A stretch of 58,018 nt of DNA, counting the filler, from Stramenopiles sp. TOSAG23-6 (taxonomy: Eukaryota): NCBI GenBank assembly GCA_900128565.1. It is 4 parts of 4 records of this genome, joined end to end, with 100 filler letters (N's around TTAATTAATTAA, not from the genome) between each part and the next. Parts side by side here need not be neighbours in the genome. Positions count along the whole stretch, not along the records: positions 14,609 to 29,055 come from LT636139.1; 3 more parts are not named here. The stretch is one strand, 5' to 3'. The translations under genes were made by a program, and so were the position numbers. Below the pieces are notes generated by a model that was not told where the DNA came from, did not search any database, and worked only from the letters and a program-made list of their open reading frames with translations. Positions 2,854 to 58,018 of this stretch are shown here, one piece after another (within the stretch, counting starts at the first letter, position 1; each line of letters starts with the position of its first letter).

Positions 2854-3131
2854 GATGATGCAGGGGCAGCGTCTGGATCTGGAGTCAATGCAGTGAGGAA
2901 GTTGACTCCACGTAACTCAAATTGATTCATCATATAAAATCGAAGGCATTTCTATTGTATATATTCCAAATTTGTAAAAAGTGGAAGAAATGTCGTTTAT
3001 TATAAGCTTCTCCTTTGCCAAAATTCATTAATAAAAGCTCACTAATATAATAATAATACTCATATAGAAGAAATTTAATTTTATTCTAATATATACAAGA
3101 ACATATATACATATACTTTGAAAACATAATA

Positions 3132-14415: not shown

Positions 14416-14508
14416 GTATGTTTTATTTTTTTTCAATTTCAAATTCGATTTTGTTTCGTACGAAATTTTGTACCTAACGATTTTTTTTTGAAATATTTTT
14501 CCAAAATA
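14416..14508 (+). mobile_element. Introner-family intron (truncated at contig end)
   Basis: AT|GTATGTTTTATTTT...TTTCGTACGAAATTTTGTACCTAAC...CCAAAATA. Confidence 0.85.
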
Positions 14509-14608
14509 NNNNNNNNNNNNNNNNNNNNNNNNNNNNNNNNNNNNNNNNNNNNTTAATTAATTAANNNNNNNNNNNNNNNNNNNNNNNNNNNNNNNNNNNN
14601 NNNNNNNN
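14509..14608. other. Artificial contig linker (N-TTAATTAATTAA-N)
   Basis: Six-frame stop linker flanked by Ns. Confidence 0.98.
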
Positions 14609-14705
14609 TTTTTTTTTTTTTTTTGTATGATTTTTTTTTCGTACGAAATTTTGTACCTAACAATTTTAGTTTTTTTTTTTTTGCGAAATATTTTTCCAAA
14701 TACAT
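14609..14705 (+). mobile_element. Introner-family intron (partial, 3' part), AT acceptor
   Basis: TTTCGTACGAAATTTTGTACCTAAC...TTTCCAAATACAT|. Confidence 0.8.
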
Positions 14706-15126
14706 GTTCCTCTTCCGTCAGAAAAAGGGAAATGGTAAAATTTGGAGAGGAGGGGATGATAATCCATTTTTTATCTTTGGAGTGTCCGGTAAAAATGTTG
14801 ATGAAAATAAGATGTATTTTTATAATCCAGCTGGTACGATAAAAGATATGATCATTGATGCTGCTACACAAGATGATGTAGGTACTCGTTGGGGAAGACA
14901 ATGGTATACTAAAAACGCACCGTTTCGGATTGAGGAAGTACGTTTTTTTATCATGAATTTCAAATCTTTTTTTTTCGTACGAAATTTCGTACCTAACGAT
15001 TTTTTTTTGTATTTTTTCACAAGGCATGTACCCGATTTTGAGAAGAAGAGTCTTTGCGGGAAGAGCACGTGTCAATGTTTCCTAAGTAAGAGACCCAGGC
15101 TGGTAGATCCAGTGGTCAAAGCATAA
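14706..15126 (+). CDS. Hypothetical protein, 3' exons (14706-14937, 15028-15126)
   Basis: Coding-like segments between intron-family copies. Confidence 0.6.
14938..15027 (+). mobile_element. Introner-family intron, 90 nt, GT...AT (in frame, no stop)
   Basis: GAA|GTACGTTTTTTTATCATGAATTT...TTTCGTACGAAATTTCGTACCTAAC...AAGGCAT|GTA. An AG 4 nt upstream of the AT is an alternative acceptor. Confidence 0.7.
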
Positions 15127-15715
15127 TTCATGTTCAAATATTTCCATTGCTCTGTGCAATTTTAGATTCCTGCCATTGTTTTGAACTTAACTCAGTTGGT
15201 ACAAAATGATTGGTATAGAAATCTATATTGCATACAACACGAATTGAATTTAAAAAAGAAAAAAAAAGTTTGATAGTAGAGAGAGAGAAAGTATAAATAA
15301 TGTTTATTCAATGGATTAAAATTCCTGGGAGAGCCAGAGGGGATATAATATCCTTTTCACTGATAATCTCTCTGATTGACTGTAAACTTTAAACAAATTT
15401 TATTGTAGCAAAAGCCAAGTAATGTTGTACTAGTAGTAAGATGTAATAAATTTGAATGAAATACTGATGAAAAACATTTAATTTCAACTTTTTCCTCGTT
15501 TTCGACGACACAAAACTGTTTCTGAGCTGCAGTCAAAGACTCAAAGTTTTTTTTGTCAAGATGGTTCATATGATTCGGTTCAATTCACGCAACTTGCAAG
15601 AACTAGTTGCAATTGAATGAAATTGCAGCGCATTCTCAAATAGTTTTGAAAAAAACAACTCCCCCTTCTCTTGTAGTTGTCTATATCCATAAAGTAATGT
15701 CAAAAGGAAATTAGC

Positions 15716-15973
15716 ATGCTGTCTCCAAAGTCTCGATTAGTGAAAGCTCACACAGAACTACTTCGTCAATGCTCTTCTGAGATTTCGGGAAAACAACGTG
15801 GTGAACAACCTGCGCTGCTTGCGCTACAAAAAGACTTTAACGACGCTTGTGACTCCCTGAGCAATCTTGCACAAATTCGGCGGTATCAATTACTTATTCG
15901 TTTGGGGAAAGATACGGATTTTATGGCACGTAGTAAAGCTCTTCAAGAAAGTTTAGAAGCGATTTCCAAATAG
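15716..15973 (+). CDS. Small coiled-coil hypothetical protein
   Basis: 85-aa ATG-initiated ORF with coding-like composition. Confidence 0.5.
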   Translation: MLSPKSRLVKAHTELLRQCSSEISGKQRGEQPALLALQKDFNDACDSLSNLAQIRRYQLLIRLGKDTDFMARSKALQESLEAISK

Positions 15974-16175
15974 CTAGTGACTGCCAAGATTGTTTTTGAG
16001 ACGCTGGTACAATTCTTCTTAAAACATGAAAAAAACATTACTGACAATAATATCTCATGATATGATAATAGATTAAACATATATATACGCATTAAGTAAA
16101 AGATATTTTCAACGTAGCCATTCGGGTGATAATAAATTTATTTTACTCATTCACTTGAAGAGTCTGTTATTTTAC

Positions 16176-18552
16176 TCAATCACTTGAAGAATCTGTTTTT
16201 TTTCTTCCCAGTTTTGGAACGCTTAATATACCAATTTCATTATTGCGTGTAATACATGGAAGTGCTACTTTCTTTCGGGAACTAGAGCGATTTACAAAAG
16301 GTATTTGATCATATGGAACAGCCTCTCGTATTTGTCTTCTTACGATGTCCATATTATTTTCAGCAGAACTTTCAATATTTTCAATATTCAATGGCAAATC
16401 ACCAATCCCTTCACTATTACTATTACCACTAGTCAAGCAAATTACATCTTCAGATGGATCAGCCCACCACATATCTGATCTAGAGCCATGCCTCTTCAAA
16501 AGTTGCCGCCAAGAAGAATGTATTGTGAAAAAAAAAATGTAGTAAAAAAATTCGTTAAGTACGGATTTTCGTAGACAAATAATTTTAAATGTATGATGAA
16601 CACGTACAAACGAACCAATTCTTGAGATAGGTGTAAATGATTTATGTGAACCTGGAGATTGTTTTTCTATTTCCCTCTCCAATTCGTCCTCTTCACACTC
16701 AGCAGAATATCGAACTTCCATGTCTTCTTTTTTATCTAAAATAACCAATTTAACAAATTGGTCAAATATATTCTTGTCCATAAGATGAAACTTTCTTTCC
16801 ATATCACTCTCAAACCTAGTTACACTCTTTTCAACTTTACTTACCTGCAACTTCAAGGGTTTCCCATTAAAAAGAACACGTACGTAGAGCTTTTCATTGG
16901 GAGGAGTATTAATAGAAGAGTCATGTTTTGTGAAAAATATTATTATTTTTTGTAATTTCGTTAGGTACAAAATGTAGTACAAAATTTGGTACAAAAAATA
17001 TCTTAATAACAACGTATCTGTGTCTTTCGGTCAAACGTTAAGAGCTCAAAGCACAGCACCGAAGCATACGGGGGCCAACCTCATGTGATACTAAAAAATA
17101 TCTCAGAAAAAAAATCGTTAGGTACAAAATTGCTTACAAAAAAAAAATCGAAATTCACAATGAAAGCCTACCATACTCCGCCAAGATGAAATCCAATTCC
17201 TCTCCCTCACCAACAAGAGTTGCAAGAAGTGGTAGAATGGTTGTATCGTGTCCAACATATACTGTTAATCTTTGTGGAATATTAATTTCCTGTTTCCATT
17301 TTAAAGACAAAGATTTTGCGAAATCTACAGGAGATCCAGCAAAACTTCTTAAGGAATTAGAAGAAACATTTCTGGAAAGAGAAGGTGTCGTAGAATTGCT
17401 TGATGATTCATTAACAGGACTCTTAGATAAACGCGTAACCTTCTCAGCTTTTGGCCAATTCCATTGTGCGGTCATATTTCTACCAATTTCATATATCAAA
17501 GGCGCTGAACAAAGTCTTGCAGTATCCCAAGATTTATATCGTGAATGTTGAAGTTGTACAAAGTATTCAAGGCAAGTATTAGCTACTTCACTTTTATTGT
17601 CTAATGATGCAGAGCAGGTTAAAGTAGGAGACGGTGGAGGTAAATATGGTTGAAGTAGAGGTAGCTTATGTGCATATCTGGTAATAGCCCAGTCAGCTGC
17701 ATGCATCCAACCAAATGATATGTTACAAGTGCGAACAGCATCAATACCGAGAGTTATTCGTTTTTTTGCATTTTTGATTTTGGCAGATATTTCTGTTGTT
17801 TTACATTTATTATTGAATTGTTTCAGTCGCTTTCTTAAAGCTGCGTCACTTTTATTGAGACCTGAGGAACCAATGACTTTAGATGCAAAACTTCGAACTT
17901 CAACTTCAATTTGACATGAACTTTTATTCTTCTTTTCTATTCCGTCTTTCACAGTGATTTCCTTCTTTTCACCAATCAAAGATTTCGTAATACTATCAAC
18001 ATTTTTTTCACCATTCAAAGGTTTCTTAATACTATCAGGATCAATTGTCAAAGAAGAAACTTCATCATTTTCTAAAGGAAACATTCCAGCTAAAATACCC
18101 TGTGTTGTTTGAATTGTACGTTGTGTATCCGTGCTAAAACATCGAAAAGTATGCAATCTTTCATCATTTTTTTCTACACTGTCACTTGAGATTAAAGTTC
18201 CATACGCACTTTTTATTTTTTTGCCGAGGAATTTGGATTGCAAAAGCCCTTGCTGTGTCAAATGCCCAAAAGGTCGCTGCCACTTAGAAAGGCGAAAACT
18301 GTTCCCAGTGTCATGTCGAACAACCGGAAACCGTTCTGATAAGTTCGAGAGTGTATCATGTGTTGGCAACAACTTATTCCACAAATCACGCTCGGCTGTC
18401 TCAGAAGTTACGGGGCCTCCAGCTGCTGGATTACTTAATGGAGAACGATCTCCATGACGAATTACCAAATGTGCTTGGATGAGTTTAGCTCCGGGTGGAA
18501 GTGGCGCAGCCACCTGATCATTGAAAAGTTTCGCTTTGTGAGCTTGTTTCAT
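16176..18552 (-). CDS. Histidine acid phosphatase family protein (exons 18552-17172, 17082-17018, 16922-16608, 16517-16176)
   Basis: RHGDRSP and GHDTT motifs. The 65-nt exon supplies WPPYASVLCFELL, and the next exon supplies YVRVLFNGKPL. Confidence 0.9.
16518..16607 (-). mobile_element. Diverged introner-family intron, 90 nt, GT...AT (in frame, no stop)
   Basis: TTT|GTACGTGTTCATCAT...CTACGAAAATCCGTACTTAAC...CACAATACAT|TCT. Confidence 0.75.
16923..17017 (-). mobile_element. Introner-family intron, 95 nt, apparent AT...AT boundaries
   Basis: CAG|ATACGTTG...TTTTGTACCTAAC...CACAAAACAT|GAC joins the phosphatase exons in phase 0. Confidence 0.65.
17083..17171 (-). mobile_element. Introner-family intron, 89 nt, GT...AT
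   Basis: TATG|GTAGGCTTTCATTGTGAATTT...GTACCTAAC...TCACAT|GAGGTTGG. An AG 3 nt downstream is also frame-compatible. Confidence 0.75.
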
Positions 18553-19033
18553 TCTATATGTAAAAACTCTACAGTCACTCTATACTTCTATTTATTTTAC
18601 TTTTTATACACCACACTCCAAAAGCTTCGTCACTGAATATCAACAAAATGAAATCAAACAAGTCGAATGGTCAACAACATCTAACGCTGCCAATGTATGA
18701 ATGTTTAATATATGACTAGTAATGTACAAAACTAAAAAGATTCAACATGTTACACGTGTGGGACACTAATGGATGTGTGCCTTATGTCAAAACAGCAAAA
18801 AAAAGTCAAAAAAATGTACCTTTTGTATACCTTGGTAGTCAACTTTAAAATATATTTGTGATTATGATATTAACAATATCGGATTAATCCTGATTATGAT
18901 AATCAATGATTACCGTAATCAAGAATAAATAAACATCAAATAAATGGATCACCCAACCCAGATTTATAGAATGATATATCATATCTCTTTTAGAAAAATG
19001 ACTAGTTAATCATCAATTGCCCCGGATCAATTG

Positions 19034-20503
19034 TTAATCCGTGAGACCACATGGATTGCCAAGATTTGAATCTGGATTTAATGAGCCCCCTGGCTTTGTG
19101 CAAAACATGCAATTTCCTCCTCCACACCATTCAGGATCAAGGCCACAACAACCATCATTATCCTCATTTATTCCGCACATACATCTTGCCCATTTTGTAT
19201 CCTCATTACCCCTTTCTGCACATTCGCATACTTGTCTATATCCATGAACCCATTTGTTATATATCATACCCTTTGCAATACATGTACCCATACCTGGTAG
19301 TGGTGTATATTTTCCATTAGGACAAGCAACACAATTTGGTTGGCTATGATATGGCGTGAATGGATTATTTGGATTCTCTTGTTTATATCCAGGACCACAT
19401 AAACAACCATACTTGTCCTTACATTCTGAAGTTTCATCGGGACAATATTCCCAGTCATGGCTTGGCTTTTTACGATATTGAAAACGTCCGTTCTTTTTTC
19501 TGCATTTTCCATCTGGCTTTTTATTTTGACACGAATCTCCTGCTTTACAGTGACGGTCATATTGATACACTTTATAGGAAGATGATCCATTCCCAAGATA
19601 ATATCTACCGTCGTCGTATTTACAGTAGCATTTGCCATCGCGCTCGTCATAGTTGTATCCACAGTTACTCAAATGTCGACGTCGTTTCTCTGCATGACCA
19701 GAAAGTCGCAAAGCTTCATTTGCATCATCCTCCAGTTTTGCAACATCCGTAGCTTCGTTGATAGTAAATGCAGCACAAACCAAGTCGGATTCACAGACAA
19801 TATGTTCTTTGTTGCTACCGTCTACATAGGTTGATGTGCCATCCCATATTTTAAGATAGCCAAATCCACTTAAAAAATCAAACTGGACTCTCGTCTTACT
19901 GAATAGACGAGCATTTGCGACCTTGAAAACTGCGTGCACGGATGCCGAGTCGGCTTCGGAATCAATATATTTAAGTTCCAACCTTTGTACGTCGGCTAAT
20001 CTATCCAGAGGAAGAATGGGCGCAACAAAAAGTTTCAATTTTGTTTCAGCAAGCGACGTAGAGACAATGTTACCATTTTTGTCGAGCAGAGAATGATGTC
20101 GTGTATGGTTTTCCTTAGTTGCTTCATTGCCAACGAACACCGCACCAACCATTGCAGCACAGGCAAATAAGACTGTAAACAACAAAATTATTGAAATTTT
20201 AGTCCATGTTCGTGTTTTTTTCTCCTGCTTTGCAAGATCTTCAAGAATTTGGACGACTTCTTCTTTGGAGAACTTTCCATCCCCATTTTTATCGTAACTC
20301 ATTAAAATTTTACCGAGTTGAGACAATTGTCCAGTTGTTTTACCTCGTCCGTCAAAGTCATACATTTCTTCAAGCTTTGAAAGGTTATGAAGCGTTCCTC
20401 CTTGTTTTTCTTCTGGATTTAAAACATTTATCCGTGAGAGATCAATTCCACCATCTTCCTGCCTTTTTCCTTTCACCGTACGAACTTCATCATTGAGAGT
20501 CAT
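19034..20503 (-). CDS. Single-pass membrane protein: cytosolic EF hand, TM helix, Cys-rich/EGF-like ectodomain
   Basis: DKNGDGKFSKEE EF hand, TM ISIILLFTVLFACAAMVGAVFVG, then CGPGY...CVACPNGKY Cys-rich repeats. Confidence 0.75.
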   Translation of the reverse strand: MTLNDEVRTVKGKRQEDGGIDLSRINVLNPEEKQGGTLHNLSKLEEMYDFDGRGKTTGQLSQLGKILMSYDKNGDGKFSKEEVVQILEDLAKQEKKTRTWTKISIILLFTVLFACAAMVGAVFVGNEATKENHTRHHSLLDKNGNIVSTSLAETKLKLFVAPILPLDRLADVQRLELKYIDSEADSASVHAVFKVANARLFSKTRVQFDFLSGFGYLKIWDGTSTYVDGSNKEHIVCESDLVCAAFTINEATDVAKLEDDANEALRLSGHAEKRRRHLSNCGYNYDERDGKCYCKYDDGRYYLGNGSSSYKVYQYDRHCKAGDSCQNKKPDGKCRKKNGRFQYRKKPSHDWEYCPDETSECKDKYGCLCGPGYKQENPNNPFTPYHSQPNCVACPNGKYTPLPGMGTCIAKGMIYNKWVHGYRQVCECAERGNEDTKWARCMCGINEDNDGCCGLDPEWCGGGNCMFCTKPGGSLNPDSNLGNPCGLTD

Positions 20504-21088
20504 ATTGCGTGGAGAAGAAAACAGCACACTTTTCAATTGAAAACTCTGGTAACGTTTTCTAGTAGAAATAGTAGAAATAGTTTGTACCTTATAATAGTGT
20601 ACAGGGATACAGGGTAGGTTAGATCGAGGAGGTTAGATCAAATTTGACAATTTGACATTTTGATTGATGTCAAACGATGTCAAAAAAAAACAAAAACAAA
20701 AAAAAACGAAGTAAAAACCACAAAACAGTTTTGTTCCTCGAAGAGAAGAGAAAAGTTTTCTCTTTTCCGTCCTTTTCCGTCCTTTTCCGTATCCATCCAT
20801 ATATTTTTCTCTTTGCGCATAGATCCTTATCTTACTATTATCAGTGCTTGAAATAGATTTTTAGCACACTTGCTAACCGAGAGACGGGCTAAATATGAGA
20901 GGTACCTTAAAGTTCTTACACAGTAGTATTTTTCAATAGTTCAAGTACCTTTGGCACCAAAAATTTTGTAGTTTTGAAGGCAGTAAACATACACTACAGG
21001 ATTTGTGTTATTTGCTTTTAGTTTCATTTATAGTACGAAGAGCTGTAAAAGATAATGGTATATATATAGTTAGTAACAAATAGACATT

Positions 21089-21871
21089 ATGCCACGTTTT
21101 GAAGATAGTAGCAGTTCCAATCATAAGGGGCCAAGAGCAGATTTTTTGTTCGTCCTTTCAAATCTTACTTTTTTCGTGGCAGCTTCTTTGGACTTGGGGA
21201 TCCAAATAGTGGAATATTTCAAGAGAATCGAACGGCACACACATATGTATCTTGACGGTATTGTGCTCGGATTTTACTTTCTTTGTGCATTATTTGGCGT
21301 TTCTGCTTCAACCTTGGCTTTAACGCGACAAAACTCCCGACGAACAAAGAAAAACCAGGAGTTGATTGAAAATTGTGGTCTAGCAGACCCCGTATATTTA
21401 ACATTTATAGGGTTTATTTTATTTCTAGTTGCTATAATGTGGGAAATATTTTTTCGATTTGTATATATTCGTGGTGACATGACCTATCGTTCATTTTTTT
21501 ACAACGTCGGTGCCGACACAATGCTTTTATTAAGTAGCGTTTGTTTTTTATTTTCGGGAAGATTTTATGCCGAGGAACATAATTTAGATATTTCAATCAT
21601 TAAAAGTAGAAATTGTTGTAATGAAAAAAGTGAAGAGACACATATGGTATGGACAGCCATGGGGGATTGGTGTTTCTTCTGGGGCATTGTAGGTGTACTC
21701 TTTTATAATACGATTCAGTGGTCGTTGCCGAATGATTTTCCTGGTTACCCGCGAACTACCGAAACTTTTCTTTGGTTACTATGTGCAATTTTTTACATTA
21801 TCCCATGGCTTATGGAAAGAAATTCTAAATTGATGAAGGATTTTAGTGCAAGAAATGTTCGGATTGTATAA
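21089..21871 (+). CDS. Multi-pass membrane protein of unknown function
   Basis: 260-aa ORF with about 6 hydrophobic segments. Confidence 0.75.
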   Translation: MPRFEDSSSSNHKGPRADFLFVLSNLTFFVAASLDLGIQIVEYFKRIERHTHMYLDGIVLGFYFLCALFGVSASTLALTRQNSRRTKKNQELIENCGLADPVYLTFIGFILFLVAIMWEIFFRFVYIRGDMTYRSFFYNVGADTMLLLSSVCFLFSGRFYAEEHNLDISIIKSRNCCNEKSEETHMVWTAMGDWCFFWGIVGVLFYNTIQWSLPNDFPGYPRTTETFLWLLCAIFYIIPWLMERNSKLMKDFSARNVRIV

Positions 21872-22056
21872 ACAGTTTATTGGTATTGATGGCATAGAAT
21901 ATAGTTGACTTTGGTGACAACATGGAAGATCTTGGATAACTTATAAAGTATAAATGTAATGAATGTAAAACAAGAATTTATTTTTTTGATCTATAGTATT
22001 TTTTACACAAAGTTATCGATTCAATTCATCAATTTAATAATAGACGCGAAGATATT

Positions 22057-23870
22057 TTATACCATACCCTTGTACGTTTGGATTCCCTGAGTTTTCTCAT
22101 ACATTTTTATGTCACTTTGCTCAGTTGTGCGAGGCCTGGCATATTCATCATCTGCTATTTCTTCATATATACGCTGAACACTACTATTATGGTTAGTATA
22201 ATCCAAAGTATCATTCACATTAGACATCATATTTACCTGCCGATCTTGACCACCCGCAATTCTCTGATGATAGCCCCATAGCCTAGCTTGTTGTTCATGA
22301 TACCTTTGATATTGCCTAGCCTGTTGTTGCATCTGTGGTGGGGATAATCTTTGCCATCCCGTGATCGAGTTACTACCACTATAAAATGGTGCATTCGTTT
22401 GATTTTCGTATAAACGATAAGCTGCATCCTGCTCAGCACCAAGTGAAAATAGCAACACGAATGCTGTAACGAGTAATGCAAATTCGAAAACAATACAGAT
22501 AGGAAAAACTACTAAAAAATAAACATTCCCATTAAAAGAATGAGGTTTCTCCGGTTCATGAATATTTTGTAATATTGCTAGAACAACAGTTTGTGTGGCA
22601 ATAACCATACATGTATTATGAAAAATATTTCAAATGTTTTTTGTTAGGTACAAAACTTTGTATGAAAAATAAATTTTAAATTCATGATGAAAACATACAT
22701 GTACTAATAATGCATACAAGCATTAACTCGCGATAGCTTTTCCTTGCCCCATAGAATCCACTTACCGCAGATGCCATATCAAACAAACCTGTCCCGATCA
22801 GAACATATATTGTGAAATTTTTTTTTTAATAAAACATTCGTTAGGTACAAAATTGCGTATGAAAAAAAACCTAATTTGAAATTCATCATGAAAACACACC
22901 CATCCGTAATTACACATCATTCCTTCTTCGGAATGTGGATTGGTGCGCCCACAATCATCAAGACCAATCCAAACACCATAGCAGGTTTGTACTACTCCAC
23001 CTATGGCTACTATTACTGCTATCGCTTGAACAGCAAGCACGAGACGCGCCTGATGGTCATCTCGCAGAGCTCTCCAATTAAATGTACAGTGACAAACTTT
23101 AAAACAACAACAGCAGTGCTCTACACAACTGTGAAAAATACGAAAAATACCTCCTGATGCTGGGTTAGGACAAGGTAAATCAACCTCATCCCCGGTACTT
23201 CTTTGAATTTCTTGTAATAATCGTTCAAATGTCAAATCAATTTGTTCGTCTAATTTCGCTGAGCACTCCACGAAAGGACACCCCCAAAGACAAGCTAACT
23301 GCCTTCCTTCTTCCTTTGAAACCACTCATGTATTGTAAAAAAAATTAAATTCGAAATTTGTTAGGCACAAAATTTCGTACGAAAAAACAATAAATTTGAA
23401 ATTCATAATGAAAACGTTCGTTCATTGGTGAGATCACACTTCGTTCCTACTAAAACACGTGGCACAGACTTTGCATCCTCTCTGCCTAAGAGAACTAGTA
23501 ATCTATCGTTGATAAACTTTGCTATTTCGAATGAATACCGCGAAGCAACGGAGTAAACAATAAGATATCCGTGTACATCGATGCAATTACGAGGATGAAA
23601 CATACTTAACTGGTCCTGCCCTGGAGTATCACGAATATGAAGATGAATTTTAGCTCTTCGATACCTGAACATTTTTTCAAAAGTATTTCCAATTGTTGGG
23701 CTATAAACATCCACAAACTGGTTATCAACGTACCGAATGATTAAGGCAGACTTTCCCACACCTGGATAACCCAATACAACTACAGCACGATCCACTACTG
23801 AGTTACGCCGACCGTGCCTACATCTACCGCTCATGGGTGGCGAAGGAGAAAAGGCTACTGAAGCATCCAT
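22057..23870 (-). CDS. Rheb-like Ras GTPase fused to a C-terminal 4-TM (tetraspanin-like) domain; exons 23870-23420, 23327-22900, 22804-22699, 22610-22057
   Basis: GYPGVGKS, YSPTIGNTF, DTPGQD, GTKCDL and ECSAK motifs. Three intron-family copies join four exons in frame. Confidence 0.85.
22611..22698 (-). mobile_element. Introner-family intron, 88 nt, GT...AT
   Basis: ACAT|GTATGTTTTCATCATGAATTT...GTACCTAAC...AATACAT|GTATG. Confidence 0.85.
22805..22899 (-). mobile_element. Introner-family intron, 95 nt, GT...AT
   Basis: TGG|GTGTGTTTTCATGATGAATTT...GTACCTAAC...CACAATATAT|GTTCTG. Confidence 0.8.
23328..23419 (-). mobile_element. Introner-family intron, 92 nt, apparent GA...AT
   Basis: GAAC|GAACGTTTTCATTATGAATTT...TTTCGTACGAAATTTTGTGCCTAAC...ACAATACAT|GAGTG restores DLTNERVVSKEEG. 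Confidence 0.8.
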
Positions 23871-24161
23871 TTACATGTATATTGTCAAGGGAACCTTACT
23901 AGAAAAAGAAATCTATTGAAAAGAAACTATTATGTAAGCAATAAACCTCCTTTTATCGATTCGAAGTTGGAACAATGGCTTGGTTCGAACGTCGATCGAT
24001 GATGGCTTCAATGACATTCGACTAGTGCCCTCTTGCGGGTGTCATAATAAATATAGGCTAGGGTTAGGGGTTTTAGTTTCAAAATCAAACTTAAAAAGAG
24101 ATGAAAAGATGATATGATGATGAAATAGAATAATTTAAATAGTCTTCTAAAACCTATCACA

Positions 24162-25842
24162 ATGGCTGTGCCACCTGCAGAAGTTGCTGATGATACTGGT
24201 GGTTATTTTTCTGATGTTTTTACACTTTGGACCTTGATGTTGACGGATAAGTTTGTGCAATCTGTGGTTAATATTTGTATCATTCTAATTGGTACAGTTG
24301 CTTTGTGTTTTTCTTTGGTGAAACTAAGTGCTATTTTAATTCCATTAGCGTTTGCTTTGTTGTTAACTGAAATGGCAAAGCCTTTGGTAGAATTTATCTC
24401 TTTTTGTTTATGCTATTCTCTATTTGGTTTTTTTGAACACAACAAATGTGACAATGATGAAACAATTACTAGTTTACTACATAAACCCCACGAAACAACC
24501 TCACTTGTCGACGGTCAAGATTTAGAATATAAGCACGAAGCGACGCTTGTTTCAACAAAGGAAAAAAAGAACAAAATATGTCGTTCAATTTGTTCGTGTA
24601 ACTACAGAATTAAGCACTACATAGCTGTATTTGGATCACTCTGTATTATTTGGGGAGCAATTCTGGGCATGATAATTATGTTAGTCAATGCACTAGTCAA
24701 CTTTCAAACTGATCATTATGACGGATATAAAAGTGAGTTTTATGAACAATTAGGCTCTATTGGTCTTTGGCTTCAGTCGGTGTTTGACGTCAATCAGACT
24801 TTTGTAGATGATTTAATTAAACGAATTGAGAGTAAAATACCAATTACTCACTACTTTAAATTTGTCATTCTTGAGATTACTGATATGTATGTTTTATTCT
24901 GTTTTATTTTTTTTTCAAATTCGAAGTTTTTTTTCGTACGAAATTTGGTACCTAACGATTTTTTTTTCAAATATTTTTCCAAAATACATGCTACTCAAAC
25001 TATTCGGAGTCTTTTTGTTTATGGTTTATTTTCTATGTGATAGTAGTTATATTGAACAAACTAGGAAGACACAAAATATTCGGTACTCACTCAATCGTCG
25101 TGCTTCATATATATCCGGAGGAGAAGATTGGAGTTTTTGTGGTCAAATGTATGTTTTATTTTTTTTTTCAATTTCGAATTTATGTTTCGTACGAAATTTT
25201 GTACCTAACATTTTTTTTTGTGAAATATTTTTCCAAAATACATTCAGTTGGGCATTCATCGATACATCCATTTGAAAACCTTAATATCTTTATTTGTTGC
25301 TGTGGCAGTGTTTATTGTTTTATTCTGCCTACATTGCAATTTAGTAGTTGCAATTGGTGTGGTCACTTTCTTCTGTAATTTTATACCCAATGTAGGCCCA
25401 GCCCTTGCAACAATTCTACCTGCACCTGTAATCCTATTTGATCCAATTATGCCTGGGTTTAACAAATTCTTATGTTTTTTACTACCACTTACTATTCATA
25501 CAATAGTAGGGAATTTTATTGAGCCTCGTTTGTTTAGTTCGTCGATGGATATCCATCCTGTCGTGGTATTGTTGGGATTGGCATTTTGGTATACACTGTG
25601 TACGTTTTAGACATTCATTTCATTTTTTTTATTTTTATAGTAAATTCTGTACCTAACAAAAACATCAAATTTTTGAAATATTTTTTCAAAATACATGGGG
25701 AGTACCTGGTGCTATTCTTTCCATCCCTTTGCTGTCTTGTGTCACTGTGATTCTCAATAATATGAACCACCCTATTGCAGTTGCTTTAAGTACAATAATG
25801 AAATCACTGTGGTTAAATGTAAATGTATTTAAGCAAGAATAA
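24162..25842 (+). CDS. AI-2E (PerM/TqsA) family transporter; exons 24162-24886, 24990-25148, 25244-25599, 25697-25842
   Basis: RYIHLKTLIS, NFIPNVGP, GNFIEPRL, HPVVVLLGLAFW, and spliced WGVPGAILSIPL. Confidence 0.9.
24887..24989 (+). mobile_element. Introner-family intron, 103 nt, GT...AT
   Basis: GATAT|GTATGTTTT...TTTCGTACGAAATTTGGTACCTAAC...CCAAAATACAT|GCTA. Confidence 0.9.
25149..25243 (+). mobile_element. Introner-family intron, 95 nt, GT...AT
   Basis: CAAAT|GTATGTTTT...TTTCGTACGAAATTTTGTACCTAAC...CCAAAATACAT|TCAG. Using the nearby AG gives a stop. Confidence 0.9.
25600..25696 (+). mobile_element. Introner-family intron, 97 nt, GT...AT
   Basis: CTGT|GTACGTTTT...GTACCTAAC...TCAAAATACAT|GGGGA restores YTLWGVPG. 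Confidence 0.85.
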
Positions 25843-25912
25843 TTTCAAAACCATACATCAATTTTCCTATAAAAATATAATACAAAAATGTTTTATTTTT
25901 TTTAACTACAAC

Positions 25913-28900
25913 TCAGAATTCAACAGCTGAATCTGAGCTACTCAAATCAAGGGTACTTGAATCTAAATCTAATGGACCCTCATCGACTGTATTCGCTAGA
26001 GGAATATCATTATCATTTCGAACAAATTGTGCAACAGGCACATCATCATGTACATTCACAACTTCTAAGTTTCCACCATCATTTTGTGCAATGGGCACTT
26101 CTTCGTCATGTAAATCAACTACTTCTAAATTCTCACCCTTACTGTCATCTTGTTCATCATTTTCTTCAATTTTATCGCGTATTTTCTCGTCGCGCATTTT
26201 CTCTTCATTTTTTGTAAGATTTAACCAAGTACGATCGTTATGTGCTTGATCATCAACTTTACTCTCACTATATTTAACCTTCTTTTTTGATGATTTCTTC
26301 ACTTCCGTTTTACTCTCCATATACTTCATCTTCTTTTTCTCCATTTTCATTGGTAAAGGATGAATTTTCTCCTCGACAAACTTTAAGCTGACACTTTCTT
26401 CACTAGTTGAATTGATGCTATCAAAACTTTGATCATCCGTCTCAAGATTTGATGGACCACATCCAACAGAATGTCCATTCGTGGAGTCAGTAGGAGTAAT
26501 GGCTGCTAGACATGATGACGCAGAATGAGATCTAGCCTTCTTATTAGATCTTCCGATAGTAAATTTCTTGAAATTCCACGCGGTTCTTTTCTTCTCCGAT
26601 AAACCACGTTCTACATCCATGGCCCCAGTACCAAGTAAACTTGTTTCTTTGTCGACAGTTCCATCTTCAAGATTAATCATTGTCTGGCAACCTGAATCCA
26701 CTGAATCAAATTGAATAGAAACCTCGCGAGACTGTTTTCTCCGACGTCGTATTCTCATGACATATGCAGCTATTCCAAAAATAGTAGCAAAAATTGTTGT
26801 ACAAATCAAAGCAATTACAACACCTTTGTTTTCTTTGCGACCACGATCCAAAAGTACAGCAGATTTTGTAAAAGATTTGTCAATTTTCCGTGTAATTGTT
26901 CCTGTGTATAACTTCCCTTTAAAGTCCTTTATCACTGAGTTGACACTATCCACATTTAATCTTCGACTGCCAACAAGATAAACTTTCGCTAAAATTGCAT
27001 CTGCATCAATACCGTATTTTGAGTCACCTCCACCATCGGGTATTTCACCGTCACCACCGTATCCATAAGGTTGCACAGATGCAATTATAACAGTCCCTAC
27101 TATACTAGAATCATCATCATCACTACTATCTGATGGCATTCGTCTCCTATTTTGCGTTTCATGGTCATGTGTATTGTTTTCACCATAATATTGTGCAGTA
27201 TCGTGCAGTTCATTTTTATTCAAATTATGAAAACCATCACTACTGTACCCAAGTTTACGTGCAAGTGAGCTATCCAAGAGAGCAAGTTTTCGCTCTTCTT
27301 CTATGGTATGAACATGCATTGCATTGACATATTCGTTTTGTTTACTTTTTGTTGGATTCATTACTAACTTCCGATTTTTGCGACCTTTTCGTTTTCTACT
27401 TGTTAAGTGAGCAAATCCTTCGGTGATTTCATTCTCAAAAGCTTTTATCCAAGAACTTGGATCTTCCCAATATTCTGAGAACTTTTGATGAACTTTAAAT
27501 GTGACAAGAATAATTGTAGCTTCCCGACCTTCACAAAGACCAACATTACATGATCGTCCTTGAAGTGATGGTCCCAAACCTAAAGCTATGCAACTCAATC
27601 CTTCACCCTTAGGCGATGGATTAGTGCATGATCTGTGTCGTATTTGCAAGCCGATAAAAGACCCCTCATAACCCTCGCACTTAGTCGAACACTCAGACCA
27701 TTCAGAATACGCGGAATATCCACCATCTATCGCATCTGTACCTAATTTCTTATCCATGTTTTCATCATTATAGACAATTGTACCACGATTCAGCATTGCG
27801 GGTCCGCGCCCATTCTCTATAGCAGGTGTAGAAACGTACAACTCTGTGCCTGTTGTCCAATCACATAGAGGATCATTTTTACAATCAGCAAAAGGATGTT
27901 CACTGCATGTTTCCGCAATATCCAATCGAACTCTACAATGACCAGGATATGTATTGTGGGTTTCTTTTATCCAACGGCACGCAGTTGTTTTGTTATCGGA
28001 AAATTTCTTAGAATTGCACAATGGAGATGATGTAATCGAGTCACAGGCTACTGCAGCCCAGCAACCACCAATAAGACGTTCACTCCATGTATTCCCAGCT
28101 GAAGGAGTAAGATTGAACGCAGGAATATCTGTTCTCAGTTGAAAACCTGAAGGGTGAGCAAGAGTTCGAATATTTCCACCAAAACTACTTGGATAAGCTC
28201 GAGGAAGTTCATTACATGAACCCTTATTAGTCATCTCAATACTTGTTATTGTACCATTTCCATCAACCAAGTATTTCCCTATAGGTTTGCTAGAACATTT
28301 CCCGCCACGAAAGACAATGTCACCTGATACATAATCTTTCCCCCCCGAGATAATTACGACCTTAACCTGAAAGGGGGCACCACCTTCTGATATAACACTA
28401 AACATAGCTTGCTTACCATCAATAAAAAAGACAGCTTTTGCACCAGCTTTAGACGCCCTATCGACATAATTCCATAAATGAAAGCATCTACACACTACCT
28501 TGGATGCCCGTAATATTATTGAATATTTGTTCGTCGCTAAGCAATGAACATTTCTGGCATTGAATCTGATCATTAGAGACACAAAATGAGTGTAGATGAT
28601 GAACAAGTTTCACATTAAGTTTAGATAAAGCTGGATACTTGATAGGATTAAACTCTGCTTGCCCAACTTCATAATAGTCCGCAATACTTGATGGTGCAAC
28701 TAACCTCACTTCAGTAGATGACATTTGCGATGATGATGGACAACTTCCTTCAGTTGAAAGTGCTTTTCCAGCTACAATCTTTGGGAGATAAAATTGGGTT
28801 GTTCCAGAACCATCAATAGCTTTTTCTAATATTTCACCCTGATGTGTACGTACAACAAACGTAGGAATCAATCTTTTTGCTTGAGCATGTATTGGATCAC

Positions 28901-29055
28901 TACCTAATGTGAAGACTGTTTCACCTTCAATAACAATCACAACACCTTTACCATCACATGCTTTGCATGCACGAGTTATTGTGTCCCATTCACCCAAACA
29001 ACTAACTTCTTTGGAAAATACCAAAGCAATTTTATCTCTCAAAGCAGAACAGTTT
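25913..29055 (-). CDS. Type I membrane protein with PA-like domains and a thrombospondin type-1 repeat (5' partial; frame break near 28490-28600)
   Basis: DRASKAGAKAVFFI (PA-like), DGGYSAYSEWSECSTKC...RHRSCTNPSP (TSP1), TM VVIALICTTIFATIFGIAAYVM. Confidence 0.75.
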
Positions 29056-29155
29056 NNNNNNNNNNNNNNNNNNNNNNNNNNNNNNNNNNNNNNNNNNNNT
29101 TAATTAATTAANNNNNNNNNNNNNNNNNNNNNNNNNNNNNNNNNNNNNNNNNNNN
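29056..29155. other. Artificial contig linker
   Basis: N-TTAATTAATTAA-N. Confidence 0.98.
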
Positions 29156-34894: not shown

Positions 34895-37802
34895 TTATTT
34901 AATATTATATTCCTTCAATGTATAATCAACAGCAAGAGCTACCGAATCTGGAAAATGATGCCGAAGAGGTCGACTGCTTATCATTATTTCAGTAAAGTCT
35001 AATCTGTCATACACCCACTCTGCTCTGACACCATTATACCCTTTTACTATATTTTCATCATCGAGTTTCGATTTACGATTACAACACAACTTATTTCCAT
35101 TTTTTTCTAGACTTTTATCTTTTTTTACTTCGAGTTCTTCTACATCTTGAAATGTGTGTTTCGTTGCAATGTGTAAAATTCTACCAGGCACACACATTTC
35201 ACGCGTAGAATCCATATTAAAGTGACGTGTAGAAGCCAAATACCGATTAAGTATCATTTCAGTTTTCGGCGAACTTGCGTATCCATTTTGAAATTTACAG
35301 TAATTTTTAATGTCTGCTTTCACATTGATGCTATATCTATTTCGACGAATTTTCATACTTTCAGTGGACATATTACTATGATCAACATTACTAACTTCTT
35401 TACTTTCTACATTAGCTGTTTCAATATCCAATTTGTTATCAGTGAAACTATTTGTAGAATCAAATGAATTTGGCAAATCTTTACGATCTTTTCCAGTACA
35501 CTTTCGTGACAGGCAACACCCACAACCTAGTATATCAAGTAGTAAACCAGTCTTGGATGCATTTGTTTCACATGCGACTTGTACTATATTATCTCTAAGA
35601 CTTTCTAATGAAGACAATGAAAGGCGTGGTATTATATCTTTCCCTACTATTAACGTTGTAATGAAAGTTTTTGTCCATTCTGCTATACCTTGAGTAAGTA
35701 AAGCTCCTGGGGGTGAATAAGCAATACATCTTGTGGAAGGATATTGATTTTTAAGAACTAAAGCTAATAGAGCAGCAACTCCTGCACCTAGAGAATGCCC
35801 AGTGATGACAAGTTCATAGGATTTATCTTTTGATTCACTGAATTTTGACCAGTCAAAAGATGACATCATTGTTATATTTGATTGATCAAAAACATTTGCA
35901 TTTGTCATATTTTCATCATTGTTATTCTGTACATTATCAATATTGGCATCTTCATTATATTCCAAAACATTTAATTCACACAACTTTTTCAAGAGACCAA
36001 TGTATTTTGAAAAATATTTCAAAAAAAAACTCCTTAGGTACAGAATTTCGTACGAAAAAAAATCGAATTTGAAAAAAAAATAAAACATACATGTTACGAA
36101 GTGCCTTTGAAATGAAAATAGCAGATTTCCACATACTGTGATGAACACCTTCACCTTCACCTGGAAAACCATATAAAACACCTTCTTTGTCTAAAGCATG
36201 AAATGTTTCTCTGGTCCTATTGTTATCATTTACATGTTCTGAAGAGTTTTCAGAATATTTCAATGATTTATTTTTATCAGTCATTCGATTTTCAGGTGCA
36301 ATAAAACATACATCTGTAAGTACATCTAAAAGTGATAATGTACCTCGGATAGCTATAATAATACTTTTTGTACGATGATCAACACATACATACCAATGTT
36401 TTTGTAAAAAACTATTTTCCATAGCGCTGTTGAAACATATTAAATCATTTTTATTGAGGCATGTTTGTTCTACTATTGAGGAAATGTCTAGTTTATCTAC
36501 GAGACTTAATTTATTCAATTTATTTGGTAAATTATCATTATTTCTTTCAGTATTTGGTAAATTATCATTATTTCTTTCATTATTTGGTAAATTATCATTA
36601 TTTCTTTCATTATTTGGTAAATTATCATTGTTTCTTTCATTATTTGGTAAATTATCATTATTTCTTTCATTATTTGTTTCACTTACCTTTATAGCACATG
36701 TATTCCTTTTAACAGTTGCAGTTCCGTCATTATTTGGAGTAGTATTATAAATACAACAACCACAAATATTGCAACTACGAAGATGTGAACAATCGATTCT
36801 ACCCATATCAATATACGCATGTAACAAATATCCATACGCCGCAAGTGCAAATTGCATACCCCAACCGAAATCACGAAGAACGTCAACTTCACTCTTGGTA
36901 TTATTATTATATGGCACGGAACTGCTTACACTAGACCAATATTCATTATATTTTGTAGCTTTTTTAGTTTGAATTTCAACATCATCATTATTGATACTTT
37001 CGTCACTAACAAACTCTTTAGCGACCTCATCGGCGATCTTGACTTGTTTTGTATGTTCTATTTTCAATTTTTGTATAATTTGTTTTCTTCGGAGAAGCGG
37101 TAGTGCTACAAATAAATCTGAATGTGTCAATTGTGCATCTTTGATAGGGTTGTTGTAGCGAGAAAGTTCAGAAGATAGAAATTTAGCGATGAGCGATATT
37201 TGTAAAGCTTCATTCTTATTATCATCTTGATGACATCGAAGAAATGGATTAGAACGGCAACAGCGGAAGCAGCAAAATTTGCAACAGACATTGACGCACA
37301 AACACTTACAACAACAACCACATGGACCACGACCATGCAAGGCAAATAGAAGGAATAAAACTAATAGTTGAATGAATGCTACAACTACAGATATAGCAAA
37401 CATTACGTCAAACAAAGGATCATCTGTAAAAGTAACTACGTAACCCCAATAACATGTCGTGCAAACAGTGGCAAAAAATAATACAAGGCGAATATATACA
37501 AGTGGTTGAATAATCCAGTCAGAAGAGTCATCTAATAACTTCACACGAACGCCAAAACAAAATATAATCGTGTCAACTATGAAGTTAGCAGTATATAGAG
37601 CAGCAGCAAAAAAACCTGACCAACTGTGATCTATGCTGTCAATACTCCAGTCACTTGGGTCTTCCAAAACCATAAGCTCTCGATAAACTGCCCACATAAG
37701 TAAAGCAGCGACGAAATACCAAAAGCCTGACATGGCGGCAGGTAAAGGAAGATCATCACCACTGATATTCCAACGCTTACAACATAAATTAAGCTGAGGC
37801 AT
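34895..37802 (-). CDS. sn1-diacylglycerol lipase-like (lipase class 3, N-terminal 4 TM); exons 37802-36091, 35999-34895
   Basis: IAIRGTLSLLDVLTD, GHSLGAG, AYSPPG, KDIIPRLS, HHFPD. Confidence 0.9.
36000..36090 (-). mobile_element. Introner-family intron, 91 nt, GT...AT
   Basis: AACAT|GTATGTTTTATTTT...TTTCGTACGAAATTCTGTACCTAAG...TCAAAATACAT|TGGT joins the lipase halves in frame. Confidence 0.9.
36519..36676 (-). repeat. Coding 30-bp tandem repeat (NNERNNDNLP x~5)
   Basis: TATTTGGTAAATTATCATTATTTCTTTCAT repeated on the + strand. Confidence 0.95.
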
Positions 37803-38025: not shown

Positions 38026-41000
38026 TTATAATTCGTTGTTAACAATACCAGTAGGTTTCTTATATGTTGTTCTACCAGTTGCAAGTTCAATATAATATTT
38101 ATGTCCATTACTACGACTAACCGCTGATTTCCAACCACTGGGCAAAATTTCAGCAGTTTTTGGTTGAGATTGATCAAGTGTAAGTTTTGTTTTCTCTTCT
38201 TTTACAGAATTTTTATTTTCCATTGGAATATCTTTTGTAGTTTCTACTGTACCATCATCACTGACTTTGGTATCATCACTGACTTTGGTATCATCACTGA
38301 CTTTGGTATCATCATTGACTTTGGTATCATCACTGACTTTGGTATCATCATTGACTTTGGTAATTTTAGTTTCCACGACCTCTGGAGAATGTATTTGCAA
38401 CTTATTAGTATTGTTTACAGCAATTGGAATCGTGTTTCTTATATCTGCGGCCTTTTCTGTGATATGTTTTTTATATTCTTCAATTGCATTATCTGTATAT
38501 GAAATCCCATCATTGGAAATATTTTTAATTGCATTATCTGTATCTGAAATCCCATCATTGGAAATATTTTTAGAGATTTTTGATTCTATATACTCAGATA
38601 CCTTTTCGTTATCTTCAGATATATTATTAGCAGTACCAATAGTTGATTGGACACTCACCTGGCTTATATTACTTTCACCATCACTTACAGCATCACTTCG
38701 TACATCACTTATTGCATCACTTACAGCATCACTTATTGCATCACTTTCTACATCACTCACAGCATCACTTACAACATCGCTAAGTTCACTTATAGTAGAT
38801 CTTACTTGACTTTCGTCATCAATAGCATTTCGATCAACTATTTCTGACTCAATATGTTCACTCTTCACAGTTTCAGATTTATCTTCATTAGGTTGACTAG
38901 TATCACTCATCATGCCGCTTGTACTTTGCTCCTGAAAGTCTTCTTCAGTGTGTGGCGTAATACTATTATTAAAATCTCTATTCATACTCTTATTTTGTTC
39001 TCGCTCTTCATCGCATATAGAACGAACGCTTGAAGCAACATCCAAACTCCATTTTGACGAAGTAACACTAGCATCATCTTTATATTTAGATGGTAATGTG
39101 TTATTGGTATTTGATCCTAGATGCCATTTAATTCCGTTATCACTATTACAATTATCGACAGGTGAAATATCTAACCATAAAGGTAAAGTACCATCAGATG
39201 AAATTCCTAACTTATTACCATAGGGTGTTTCCAACAATTGAAGCAAATATTGATGTAGTGTCGCAGATCTTGGTTGTTCAGTTTCAAGCAATTTGAGTAG
39301 GGTAGCCACTGCATCTTTCATTTCACCCAATGCATTTAACTTTTCATCTACACGTATTTTTTCATCATTTTTCATCTCAAAATAGCAAGGTTTTTCTAAT
39401 GTTGAAAACATATTCATTTCTGTCATAGATCTACGAAATGATGTTAATGATTCGTTATCGTGTTCATTATCAGATGAATTTGCACCACTCTCAGCAATTT
39501 GAAAAAGAACCTGCAAAGCGGTATAGGCTGTTGTCTCTTCTTCCTTAAGTTCACTTAACCAGTCATGCATTTTATCATTAATATTATTTTCATTTTTATC
39601 TTTTAGAAAACGACTTTTAGAATTTTCGTCTCCTTTAAATACTTTTCTTGGTGATGATGATTTATGGGTATAATTGTTAAGCACTTGGCCTTTATTTTCA
39701 TCTCGTACAATCGTTATGTCACCATTTCCAGTGCCAAAAACAGTAGCATGTTGTATTTTGCGATCTTCTCTTTCTTGGTACATTTTCCGAAGTCCTGCAA
39801 TTTCCGCATTGTGACCCTGAATCAATTTCAACGAATTAACTTGCATTTCATACATTTTTTTTATTGTCTCCTGAAGACCACTATTTTCTACTGTATCATC
39901 CAACATAAAAGTAGAATTGGTTTTACTTTTACTTTGAATTTTACATGAAGTGTCTAAAGTATTTAAATTTTTCGGAGTTGATAATGCTGATTTAGGTGTT
40001 TTTACATTTTGATCAACTTCACTATCAATTGTATCGTTATAATATTTATGCTGATACCTATTTTCTTTGGTTAGTGTATTTCTTCGCTTGGCTCTCTGTG
40101 ACGGGTAGTAATTAGACCCAAATCCTTCTTTTGGGGATCCAACGATATTTTTCTCATATACCCTTTTCGAAATTCCTCTTGAAGGTTTCTGGTTGGCACC
40201 CCATAGAGATTGTTTGTACTTTTTACGACTTCGTTTTGGTTGACTTAATTGAGCCATTGCTTTAGCTTGTTCATGTGGATTTCTATAACGATTACTACTG
40301 TGTTGATTACTTTCTTTTTTTGGGGTTGGAGAATAATACTTAGCATACTTTTGGGGAGAATGACCATTACTAATGTCGTTTTCATTAGATCGCCATTCAT
40401 ATGTAAAATCTCCACTACAATTAGATTCTGATACACCATTAGTTGTATTGTCATTGTTTTCAAAAGAAGTTATATATTCGTTGGACGAAACAACCCCATT
40501 TTGGTATATGCTTCCACTAATATCTCGCCCTCGACCAAAAGCATCAAATGATTGCAGATCAACATATTTAGGAGATTTATTACTATCAGGTGTTTGAACT
40601 CTATCGGAATACTTTTTATACGGGGTATTTGGTTTTGAAGGAACATATCTGAAAATAGTAACTGCCAAAGTAATAGTTTTTTTGACCTCAGATGAAATGC
40701 ACTCGTGTAATGTTATATGATGAAGATGTTTATTCTTTTCATTTTCACTGAAATGTGGCGAAAGTAAGGTGTTAGCAGCATTTTCTTTATCATCACCATA
40801 TCCTTTATGTCTTTTTGTTTTATCTTCATTCAAAGATTTTACAGTTGAAATTAATTCATTTACAGAAATTACACCTCTACCAATAAGAGAGTCGCCATTA
40901 AAAGTATTTTCATCCCAAACTGATACCACAAATACATTATCGTCGCACTTTTGAGTTTTTATTTCATTACATTCATTATTCTGATTAATTTTGTCAGATA

Positions 41001-43545: not shown

Positions 43546-43645
43546 NNNNNNNNNNNNNNNNNNNNNNNNNNNNNNNNNNNNNNNNNNNNTTAATTAATTA
43601 ANNNNNNNNNNNNNNNNNNNNNNNNNNNNNNNNNNNNNNNNNNNN
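43546..43645. other. Artificial contig linker
   Basis: N-TTAATTAATTAA-N. Confidence 0.98.
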
Positions 43646-57929: not shown

Positions 57930-58018
57930 GTACGTTTTCATTATGAATTTCATTTTTTTTTTTTTTTTTTTGGTTTCGTACGAAATTTTTTACCTAACAA
58001 ATGTTGAATTTATTTTTT
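57930..58018 (+). mobile_element. Introner-family intron (truncated at window end)
   Basis: TATAA|GTACGTTTTCATTATGAATTT...TTTCGTACGAAATTTTTTACCTAAC. Confidence 0.85.

Follow-up and report, generated by a model that had tools for sequence, protein, structure and literature searches.

A family of short introns ending in AT, probably of introner type, in unrelated genes of an uncultured marine stramenopile

Here, we describe a family of short introns that recurs in unrelated genes within a 58,018-nucleotide window of DNA (the whole stretch analysed, along which all positions are counted) from Stramenopiles sp. TOSAG23-6 (GenBank assembly GCA_900128565.1). The interpretation that we favour, and consider probable, is that these introns represent an introner-type family with a non-AG acceptor, which has multiplied into many unrelated genes of this uncultured marine stramenopile. 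We infer that the family is mobile, and an anatomy of terminal inverted repeats (TIRs) combined with a 2-nt target-site duplication (TSD) is possible, although half of the copies speak against it. The window comprises four blocks, each of about 14.4 kb, with N44-TTAATTAATTAA-N44 linkers between them at 14509-14608, 29056-29155 and 43546-43645; these are therefore four separate contigs, and adjacent blocks are not necessarily neighbours in the genome.

Three members of the family lie in a plus-strand gene encoding an AI-2E-like transporter. Copy 1 (24887-24989, 103 nt) reads AT/GTATGT...ATACAT/G, where the slashes mark exon-intron boundaries, copy 2 (25149-25243, 95 nt) reads AT/GTATGT...ATACAT/T and copy 3 (25600-25696, 97 nt), which is without a direct repeat, reads GT/GTACGT...ATACAT/G. 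Each starts with GTAYGTTTT, carries ...TTTNGTACCTAAC mid-element and finishes in ...TTTTYCAAAATACAT. When all three are excised as GT...ACAT a single open frame runs through to the stop, a result that ends placed two bases earlier fail to give, and the removal of copy 1 is required for the frame to be open. The third exon (25245-25598) matches positions 191-302 of PF01594, with the match ending at the residue that precedes copy 3. The repeated introns that the initial annotation placed in 24887-25696 are thus borne out, as three related introns, the removal of which leaves one open frame.

Related introns lie elsewhere in the window. A 21-nt core is matched 14 times at three mismatches or fewer, compared with no matches in 100 shuffles, and an nhmmer profile built from 13 copies returned 18 hits (E values of 6e-24 to 5e-10) at 17 loci, one locus having been matched twice. 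This equates to one copy per 3.4 kb. Two further degenerate members, at 57424-57523 in a TruB gene and at 45696-45763, were spotted by eye. The hosts belong to seven protein families (ABC transporter, branch-2 histidine phosphatase, Ras-like GTPase, AI-2E-like transporter, class-3 lipase, UFD1 and TruB), so that the idea of one repeated intron element in unrelated genes holds. The profile alignments cover approximately 75-128 positions, and the likeness therefore extends beyond the short splice signals alone, to which it might have been limited. Complete copies range in length from 88 to 106 nt.

The clearest evidence on where these introns end comes from RNA. We aligned contigs of three metatranscriptome runs (poly-A or other) and of one DNA metagenome (X2) to 14609-29055, a block that is represented in seawater metagenomes and in poly-A metatranscriptomes; positions not covered by RNA contigs count neither for nor against splicing. 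Two minus-strand introns, at 16518-16607 (90 nt, TT/GTACGT...ATACAT/T) and 16923-17017 (95 nt, AG/ATACGT...AAACAT/G), are both skipped in record 9 of run X5 (1736 nt) and in record 15 of run X6 (701 nt). In the DNA run, depth is 0 at both joints and the contigs continue through the introns. The first of these introns ends GT...AT, with its register free by one base, and the second ends AT...AT, with no register freedom. A third skip, of 17083-17171 on the same strand (89 nt, TG/GTAGGC...CACAT/G; GT...AT, again free by one base), has no joint of its own among those listed and is implied by the coordinates of X5 record 9, pieces of which cover 17171-18196 and 16608-16922 with 64 letters between them; here splicing bypasses two AG dinucleotides that follow the branch box. 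Given that RNA skips these three copies in this way, the AT that follows ATAC must belong to the intron as its final dinucleotide, and AG does not serve as the acceptor.

Some further features of these transcripts were apparent. At 17083-17171 the family's usual GTATG stands 5 nt upstream, within the exon, and the RNA uses the donor GTAGGC; the donor of this copy appears to have slid. The 90-nt intron at 16518-16607 is in frame and free of stops, so its retention would lengthen the protein by 30 residues without truncating it. Summed depth over the intron copies reached 2000-3000 in X5 and X7, compared with approximately 10 on exons, and was approximately 20 in the third RNA library, X6. The high values in X5 and X7 reflect either plentiful unspliced or excised introns, or DNA carry-over.

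For the remaining copies, splicing rests on the continuity of frame and domain. Across 12 complete copies and the degenerate TruB intron, open frames are obtained only in the GT...AT register class. The Ras-like gene, on the minus strand, has copies at 22611-22698 (88 nt, AT/GTATGT...ATACAT/G), 22805-22899 (95 nt, GG/GTGTGT...ATATAT/G) and 23328-23419 (92 nt, AC/GAACGT...ATACAT/G, with a donor of GA, or of AA if shifted by one). Over the last of these, the Ras profile match (2-118) stops at the exon's final residue and restarts (122-161) at residue 2 of the next exon. In the TruB gene, the plus-strand copy at 57623-57728 (106 nt, AT/GTATTT...ATACAT/T) is preceded by TruB_N positions 16-47 and followed by positions 50-106. 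Taken together, the continuity of these two profiles means that the boundaries we place are correct to within a residue. The degenerate TruB intron at 57424-57523 (plus strand, 100 nt, CT/GTATTT...CACAATATAT/A), which was missed by the profile, retains the two ends of the family and a decayed core (z = 2.1 for resemblance to the family); the following exon begins at TruB_N position 16, and the GHSGTL / DPFATG motif is disrupted unless this intron is removed.

Other complete copies are found at 14938-15027 (plus, 90 nt, AA/GTACGT...AAGGCAT/GTAC), in the lipase-domain gene at 36000-36090 (minus, 91 nt, AT/GTATGT...ATACAT/T) and in the UFD1 gene at 51532-51635 (minus, 104 nt, AC/GTATGT...ATACAC/A). 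The UFD1 copy is the sole one not to end in AT, and its last two bases repeat the end of the exon; the frame would permit a length of 98, 101, 104 or 107 nt, and 104 was chosen by the register of the family. A junction was also sought with the UFD1 exon, but the one near-identical protein recovered (P0001) runs on into the intron and hence provides none. Four copies are cut by contig ends: 1-65 (minus, AT/GTATGT...), which interrupts an ABC_membrane domain, 14416-14508 (plus, AT/GTATGT...CCAAAATA, followed by N), the 3' part at 14609-14705 (plus, ...CCAAATACAT/G) and 57930-58018 (plus, AA/GTACGT...).

Alignment of the copies reveals likeness over nearly their full length, running from the donor through ATCATGAATTTCAAAT, in place of which a second subfamily has TTTTCAATTTCGAAT, and then over a T run, TTTCGTACGAAATTTTGTACCTAAC and a second T run to GAAATATTTTTCACAATACAT. 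The branch box is the best conserved block, and the distance between its A and the 3' end is 31-46 nt (median 35). ATCATGAATTTCAAAT and a 12-nt palindrome, TTTCGTACGAAA, have no evident role in splicing; they are common to the better-kept copies and decayed in the rest. The likeness starts and stops at the intron-exon boundaries. Foreign copies behave similarly: among the joint rows listed, 7 of the 8 aligned to copy 2 begin at 25147, the A of the exonic AT; among the X2 contigs listed, 37 of 44 reach or pass 24989; and among the matches listed, the alignments mostly stop at 24989-24992. After ...ACAT, the exon opens with G in 10 and with T in 4 of the 16 known cases, and the 3' signal may therefore extend by one base beyond the intron. 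Downstream of the branch box, AG is not significantly avoided (4 observed vs 7.4 expected, P = 0.08). Choice of the 3' site through RNA pairing of the intron ends was rejected as a general rule, with fold z-scores ranging from -2.7 to +1.2 and the UFD1 copy breaking the pairing.

We propose a model in which one short (88-106 nt) spliceosomal intron would spread through unrelated genes, each copy bringing its own donor (GTAYGTTTT), a strongly conserved branch box (TTTTGTACCTAAC) some 35 nt from the 3' end with a T run after it, and a 3' box (TTTTTC-A/C-AAATAC) with AT behind it. Splicing excises exactly GT...AT, tolerating A at +1 and C at the last base; the acceptor is therefore AT, not AG, and the coding sequence is restored. 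A younger subfamily with GTAT donors would insert at an exonic AT, leaving AT on both sides of GTAT...ATAC. Much of this was anticipated by the initial annotation: a GT donor carried by the element, an AT (once AC) acceptor and a restored coding sequence all stand, whilst the origin of the acceptor AY by duplication is one of several possibilities.

The abundance of the family is most apparent in the seawater metagenome X2, from which 5950 contigs aligned to the 14.4 kb at a likeness of at least 92%. Mean depth was 17185 (24731-25212), 7021 and 5567 in bins that bear copies, compared with 7-8.7 in single-copy bins; the excess over the copies is approximately 2000-fold, in terms of a summed depth that is not a copy number. 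An excess this strong indicates a high-copy family, and the depth would agree in order of magnitude with the density seen in the window when scaled to a genome of tens of Mb. Among public metagenome contigs, a scan with a 22-nt core found one locus only, on contig L001, where a copy reading AT/GTATGT...ATACAT/G lies in sense inside a different orphan gene. The 13 loci matched on viral contigs are attributable to chance, none holding a copy by nhmmer. As had been pointed out in the initial annotation, four of the eight contig ends (1, 14508, 14609 and 58018) fall within a copy, and copies thus break assemblies.

Several results weigh against an introner-type family, and we consider these together here and in the following three paragraphs, with the alternative explanations on which they bear. 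The copies were previously described as near-identical, which overstates the case, since the 14 complete ones (13 in the window together with the L001 copy) are only 61-89% alike in pairs (mean 72%), compared with 60% (maximum 65%) for mononucleotide-shuffled copies. All introns found in the window share the form of the family, and their likeness may partly reflect strict splicing requirements. We found no GT-AG intron in the window, and outside the family only 2 GTAYGT...CTAAC candidates in 58 kb, neither of which joins open reading frames (ORFs). One could envisage a non-mobile explanation, in which an intron-poor genome with long, strict splicing signals keeps unrelated old introns alike, as occurs in other protists with few introns. 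The scarcity of other candidates is in line with this, as is the fact that donor, branch box and 3' box are common to every intron found, including the degenerate TruB intron, which keeps little else. We nonetheless consider it highly improbable, given that the likeness is full-length and takes in blocks that have decayed in older copies, that length is confined to 88-106 nt, that thousands of metagenome contigs match at 92% or better and that assemblies break inside copies at four of eight contig ends.

Whether an introner-type family of this kind moves as DNA is a closer question. The model put forward in the initial annotation, in which the family is a small, non-autonomous DNA element and 2 bp of target are duplicated when it inserts, seems to us possible and close to an even call, falling just short of one. 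The UFD1 copy with AC on both sides, a truncated copy outside sense coding sequence and the clumping of copies (P = 0.028, below) all point to insertion at the DNA level, and most introner families have been judged to be DNA-based (Gozashti et al., 10.1101/2022.06.06.494994; here and throughout, published work is cited from the accessible portions of each source). The proposed inverted-repeat ends hold over the 4 nt of GTAT/ATAC, extending to 6 nt with the flanking AT, and GTAT...ATAC (leaving aside the last AT) is present in 5 of the 13 complete copies of the window. Four nucleotides lie below the 6-nt minimum used as a rule for TIRs (Gozashti et al., 10.1101/2022.06.06.494994), and in a 22-nt in-register test just one copy out of 13 scores above its shuffles (P < 0.01). 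The inner pair TTTCAA/TTGAAA is complementary as had been noted, being in register in the youngest copies.

The direct repeat is similarly divided. The best-kept copies do read AT/GTAT...ATACAT/, and the UFD1 copy AC/GTAT...ATACAC/, as first reported. The upstream exon and the intron end in the same dinucleotide in 7 of 14 complete copies (six AT with AT, one AC with AC), or in 7 of 15 with the degenerate TruB intron included. A permutation test for a locus-specific repeat is not significant (P = 0.14), given how prevalent AT is at the 3' ends. Eight copies in which the exon ends differently (AA, GT, CT, TT, AG, TG, GG and AC) nonetheless end in AT and so have no direct repeat, and these include three proved to splice. 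The flanking dinucleotide therefore behaves as a direct repeat in half of the copies, with only that of UFD1 being specific to its locus, and there the 3' end is set by the family register. Exonic AT is enriched, occurring at 8 of 18 known exon ends compared with a background of 9.9% (P = 1.6e-4), and it tracks the donor, being present at 9 of 10 GTAT donors and at 0 of 8 that read GTAC, GTGT, GTAG, GAAC or ATAC (Fisher P = 4e-4). AT is, however, its own reverse complement, and AT...AT may thus represent a TSD, a terminal palindrome of 6 nt or an AT target that was never duplicated; matches of this sort across an intron have been classed as 'ambiguous', with at least one locus-specific position being required (Gozashti et al., 10.1101/2022.06.06.494994). 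A duplication of 3 nt (NAT or ATG) was rejected: the base at intron position -3 is always C regardless of the exon, and a downstream G is found in only 3 of the 6 complete AT-flanked copies (5 in the window and that on L001). At 22611-22698, a 10-nt direct repeat, TACATGTATG, spans both junctions (22599-22710, minus) and is far longer than the AT seen elsewhere.

The genomic placement of the copies has also to be considered. Each of the 17 copies detected by the profile shares its strand with the flanking ORFs and is genic, even though approximately 19% of the window is non-genic, a bias that would fit an RNA route or strong selection too. The claim that every copy is sense within coding sequence holds for these 17, the exception being the truncated 68-nt copy at 45696-45763 (plus, AT/GCATGT...ATACAT/), which lies opposite the only long ORFs there, in no recognisable gene; its resemblance to the family is evident on the plus strand (z = 6.8) compared with the minus (z = 1.1). 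The ORF beside it gave no homologue by search and no Pfam match. On the minus strand, a putative 64-nt intron, AT/GTATTG...ACAT/ (45698-45761), would join ORFs 45715-45990 and 45168-45707 in frame; if it is spliced, the element would function in both orientations. Some families of dinoflagellate introner-like elements (ILEs) are described as making introns in both orientations (10.1101/2020.10.14.339549). The 18 introns (the degenerate TruB intron included) fall in 9 of 31 gene-sized ORF groups and are clumped relative to placement at random by length (P = 0.028), with ORFs of 1641, 1222, 957 and 898 codons being intron-free. No sign of the autonomous partner that the initial annotation proposed to look for emerged in the window, where none of 45 distinct ORF pieces scanned contains a domain of a transposase, an integrase or a reverse transcriptase. 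Finally, the junctions seen in RNA are three only, both runs that show them, X5 and X6, come from one study, and this evidence takes the form of assembled contigs, not reads.

These features could be accommodated if the same family spread without a TSD, either by reverse splicing of the excised intron into transcripts with subsequent reverse transcription and recombination, a route put forward for the introner-like elements of ascomycetes, or by blunt insertion beside AT; exonic AT would then report on a site preference, or on survivor bias for good donors. Uniform sense orientation inside genes (17 of 17 profile-detected copies), homology that ends at the splice sites, the lack of a TIR of at least 6 nt and the eight copies without a repeat, three of them proved to splice, are all in keeping with such a route; clumping in few genes could mirror expression level, and families without TSD or TIR are known (Gozashti et al., 10.1101/2022.06.06.494994). 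Set against this, the AC on both sides of the UFD1 intron is a direct, non-palindromic repeat and the truncated copy lies opposite to the strand of the local ORFs. The RNA route is also described as an outlier confined to ascomycetes, and gene bias is seen in DNA-based introners as well (161 of 175 genomes; Gozashti et al., 10.1101/2022.06.06.494994). On balance we regard spread without duplication as unlikely, albeit worth retaining alongside the DNA-based model.

The unusual termini raise the further question of which spliceosome acts on the family. A transformed minor (U12-type) spliceosome, expanded as in Physarum, could splice these introns, and this would be compatible with an introner origin. 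Among U12-type introns, GT-AT and AT-AT recur as non-canonical pairs (Sheth et al., PMC1557818), making up 17% and 8%, respectively, of non-canonical minor introns in Physarum (Physarum preprint). In the present family, the base at +1 may be A or G and the last base C or T. Donor positions 1-4 and 7-9 agree with [G/A]TATC[C/T]TTT (Physarum preprint), and the best conserved block is the branch box. However, the donor [G/A]TA[T/C]GTTTT has GT, not CC or CT, at positions 5-6, and the branch A is 31-46 nt from the 3' end, compared with 9-12 nt in Physarum minor introns (Physarum preprint). The branch box is moreover followed by a long T run, as in major-type introns, and an Rfam scan of the window yielded only a tRNA and no small nuclear RNA. 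We therefore consider a U12-type machinery improbable. Whilst U12-type non-canonical introns share the GT-AT and AT-AT pairs, in their own genomes they are rare exceptions (PMC1557818; Physarum preprint), and neither the donor core nor the branch-to-3' distance of the family described here fits them.

Returning to an introner-type origin, the closest parallels are provided by Micromonas pusilla and Aureococcus anophagefferens, the introners of which likewise form short, high-copy intron families in unrelated genes with one splice site on the element, the other being said to derive from the duplicated target such that the coding sequence is restored (PMC11282704). Introners were first noticed in Micromonas and later read as similar to miniature inverted-repeat transposable elements (MITEs), with the donor on the element and AG from the duplication (PMC11282704). 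They differ in having AG ends, a 3-nt TSD (M. pusilla) and adjacent TIRs (PMC11282704), as opposed to the AT end, a repeat of 2 nt or less in some copies and the 4-nt inverted termini of the present family. The MITE-derived introns of Fritillaria borealis resemble it in their AC or AT ends, with the 3' site being attributed to an exonic TAC repeat that insertion left behind (PMC11282704; PMC13326754), and in a host spliceosome adapted to non-AG ends (PMC11282704). Their host is an animal, however, with AG donors (AG-AC, AG-AT) and varied termini (PMC11282704), in contrast to the uniform strong donor, branch box and single 3' box seen here. Amoebophrya, also a marine protist, has repeated non-canonical introns with short direct repeats at their boundaries (PMC7789003), but these carry inverted repeats of 8-20 nt, direct repeats of 3-5 nt and no preferred terminal dinucleotides (PMC7789003), whereas our family has no long inverted repeat and a nearly invariant GT...AT.

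More broadly, introners are found in approximately 5% of surveyed genomes and recruit their splice sites in very varied ways (Gozashti et al., 10.1101/2022.06.06.494994). The surveyed families share the genic bias seen here, and some carry a donor and co-opt an acceptor (the Chrysochromulina type; 10.1101/2022.06.06.494994). In these, and in dinoflagellate ILEs, the co-opted acceptors are AG, and the accessible portions of both sources do not describe a regular AT acceptor (10.1101/2022.06.06.494994; 10.1101/2020.10.14.339549). Diplonemid-type non-canonical introns, which have GC-rich paired ends and termini that are not fixed, were rejected as being unlike this family. Our literature search, outside which most subscription papers fell, recovered neither an account of this family nor one of GT-AT introns in MAST lineages, and no remark on unusual introns in MAST genomes was found in the accessible text of PMC5778133 and PMC8163842. 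The introner is thus a known kind of element, while no printed account was found of a strong GTAYGT donor occurring together with a fixed branch box and a regular AT acceptor; of these features, it is the RNA-backed non-AG acceptor that we consider most worth following.

The identity of the organism has some bearing on how widely such an acceptor may be used. An ORF without an intron (1185-1949, minus) that encodes Utp11 is 91% identical to a EukProt coding sequence with a source label starting GSMAST32, and the subsequent named matches, at 43-53%, are from brown algae, eustigmatophytes and oomycetes. For the UFD1 exon, named relatives are all at 39% or below. Read from the one protein, Utp11, the organism would appear to be a stramenopile near the MAST-3 lineage. 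One might go further and suppose that essentially every nuclear intron of this MAST-3-related lineage regularly uses AT (rarely AC) as its acceptor and descends from one introner family; we offer this tentatively, as rather less than an even chance.

The window holds a number of other features. Large ORFs, including that of 1641 codons (38029-42951), contain in-frame repeats of 30, 18 and 12 nt (36490-36706; 38236-38800), and a 144-nt tandem repeat occupies a contig start (29156-29614). The minus-strand ORFs 28491-29099 and 25916-28609 overlap in different frames at 28491-28609, where there is no RNA contig; this represents either an assembly frameshift or another kind of intron. A plus-strand tRNA gene (48842-48925) matches a 71-position model end to end and, being 84 nt in length, may contain an insertion or an intron. 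An ORF without an intron (6046-6696, plus) has all three bacterial-type EF-P domains and presumably serves an organelle.

A uniform GT...AT class would show cleanly, in a natural setting, how a 3' splice site is chosen when AG plays no part, and comparable cases are only those of Fritillaria and a few protists (PMC11282704). Here, the non-AG acceptor would be tied to an introner burst, which bears on whether changes in the spliceosome are driven by invading introns. A practical consequence is that gene finders that demand AG would split or truncate every gene bearing a copy, at approximately one copy per 3.4 kb in this window. MAST-3 assemblies have been reported to have few predicted genes for their size (PMC5778133), and AT-ending introns may contribute to these low counts. 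If the AT-acceptor reading is true, then gene sets based on GT-AG would be systematically broken for such genomes, and an intron invasion would have rewritten the 3' splice code of a free-living protist.

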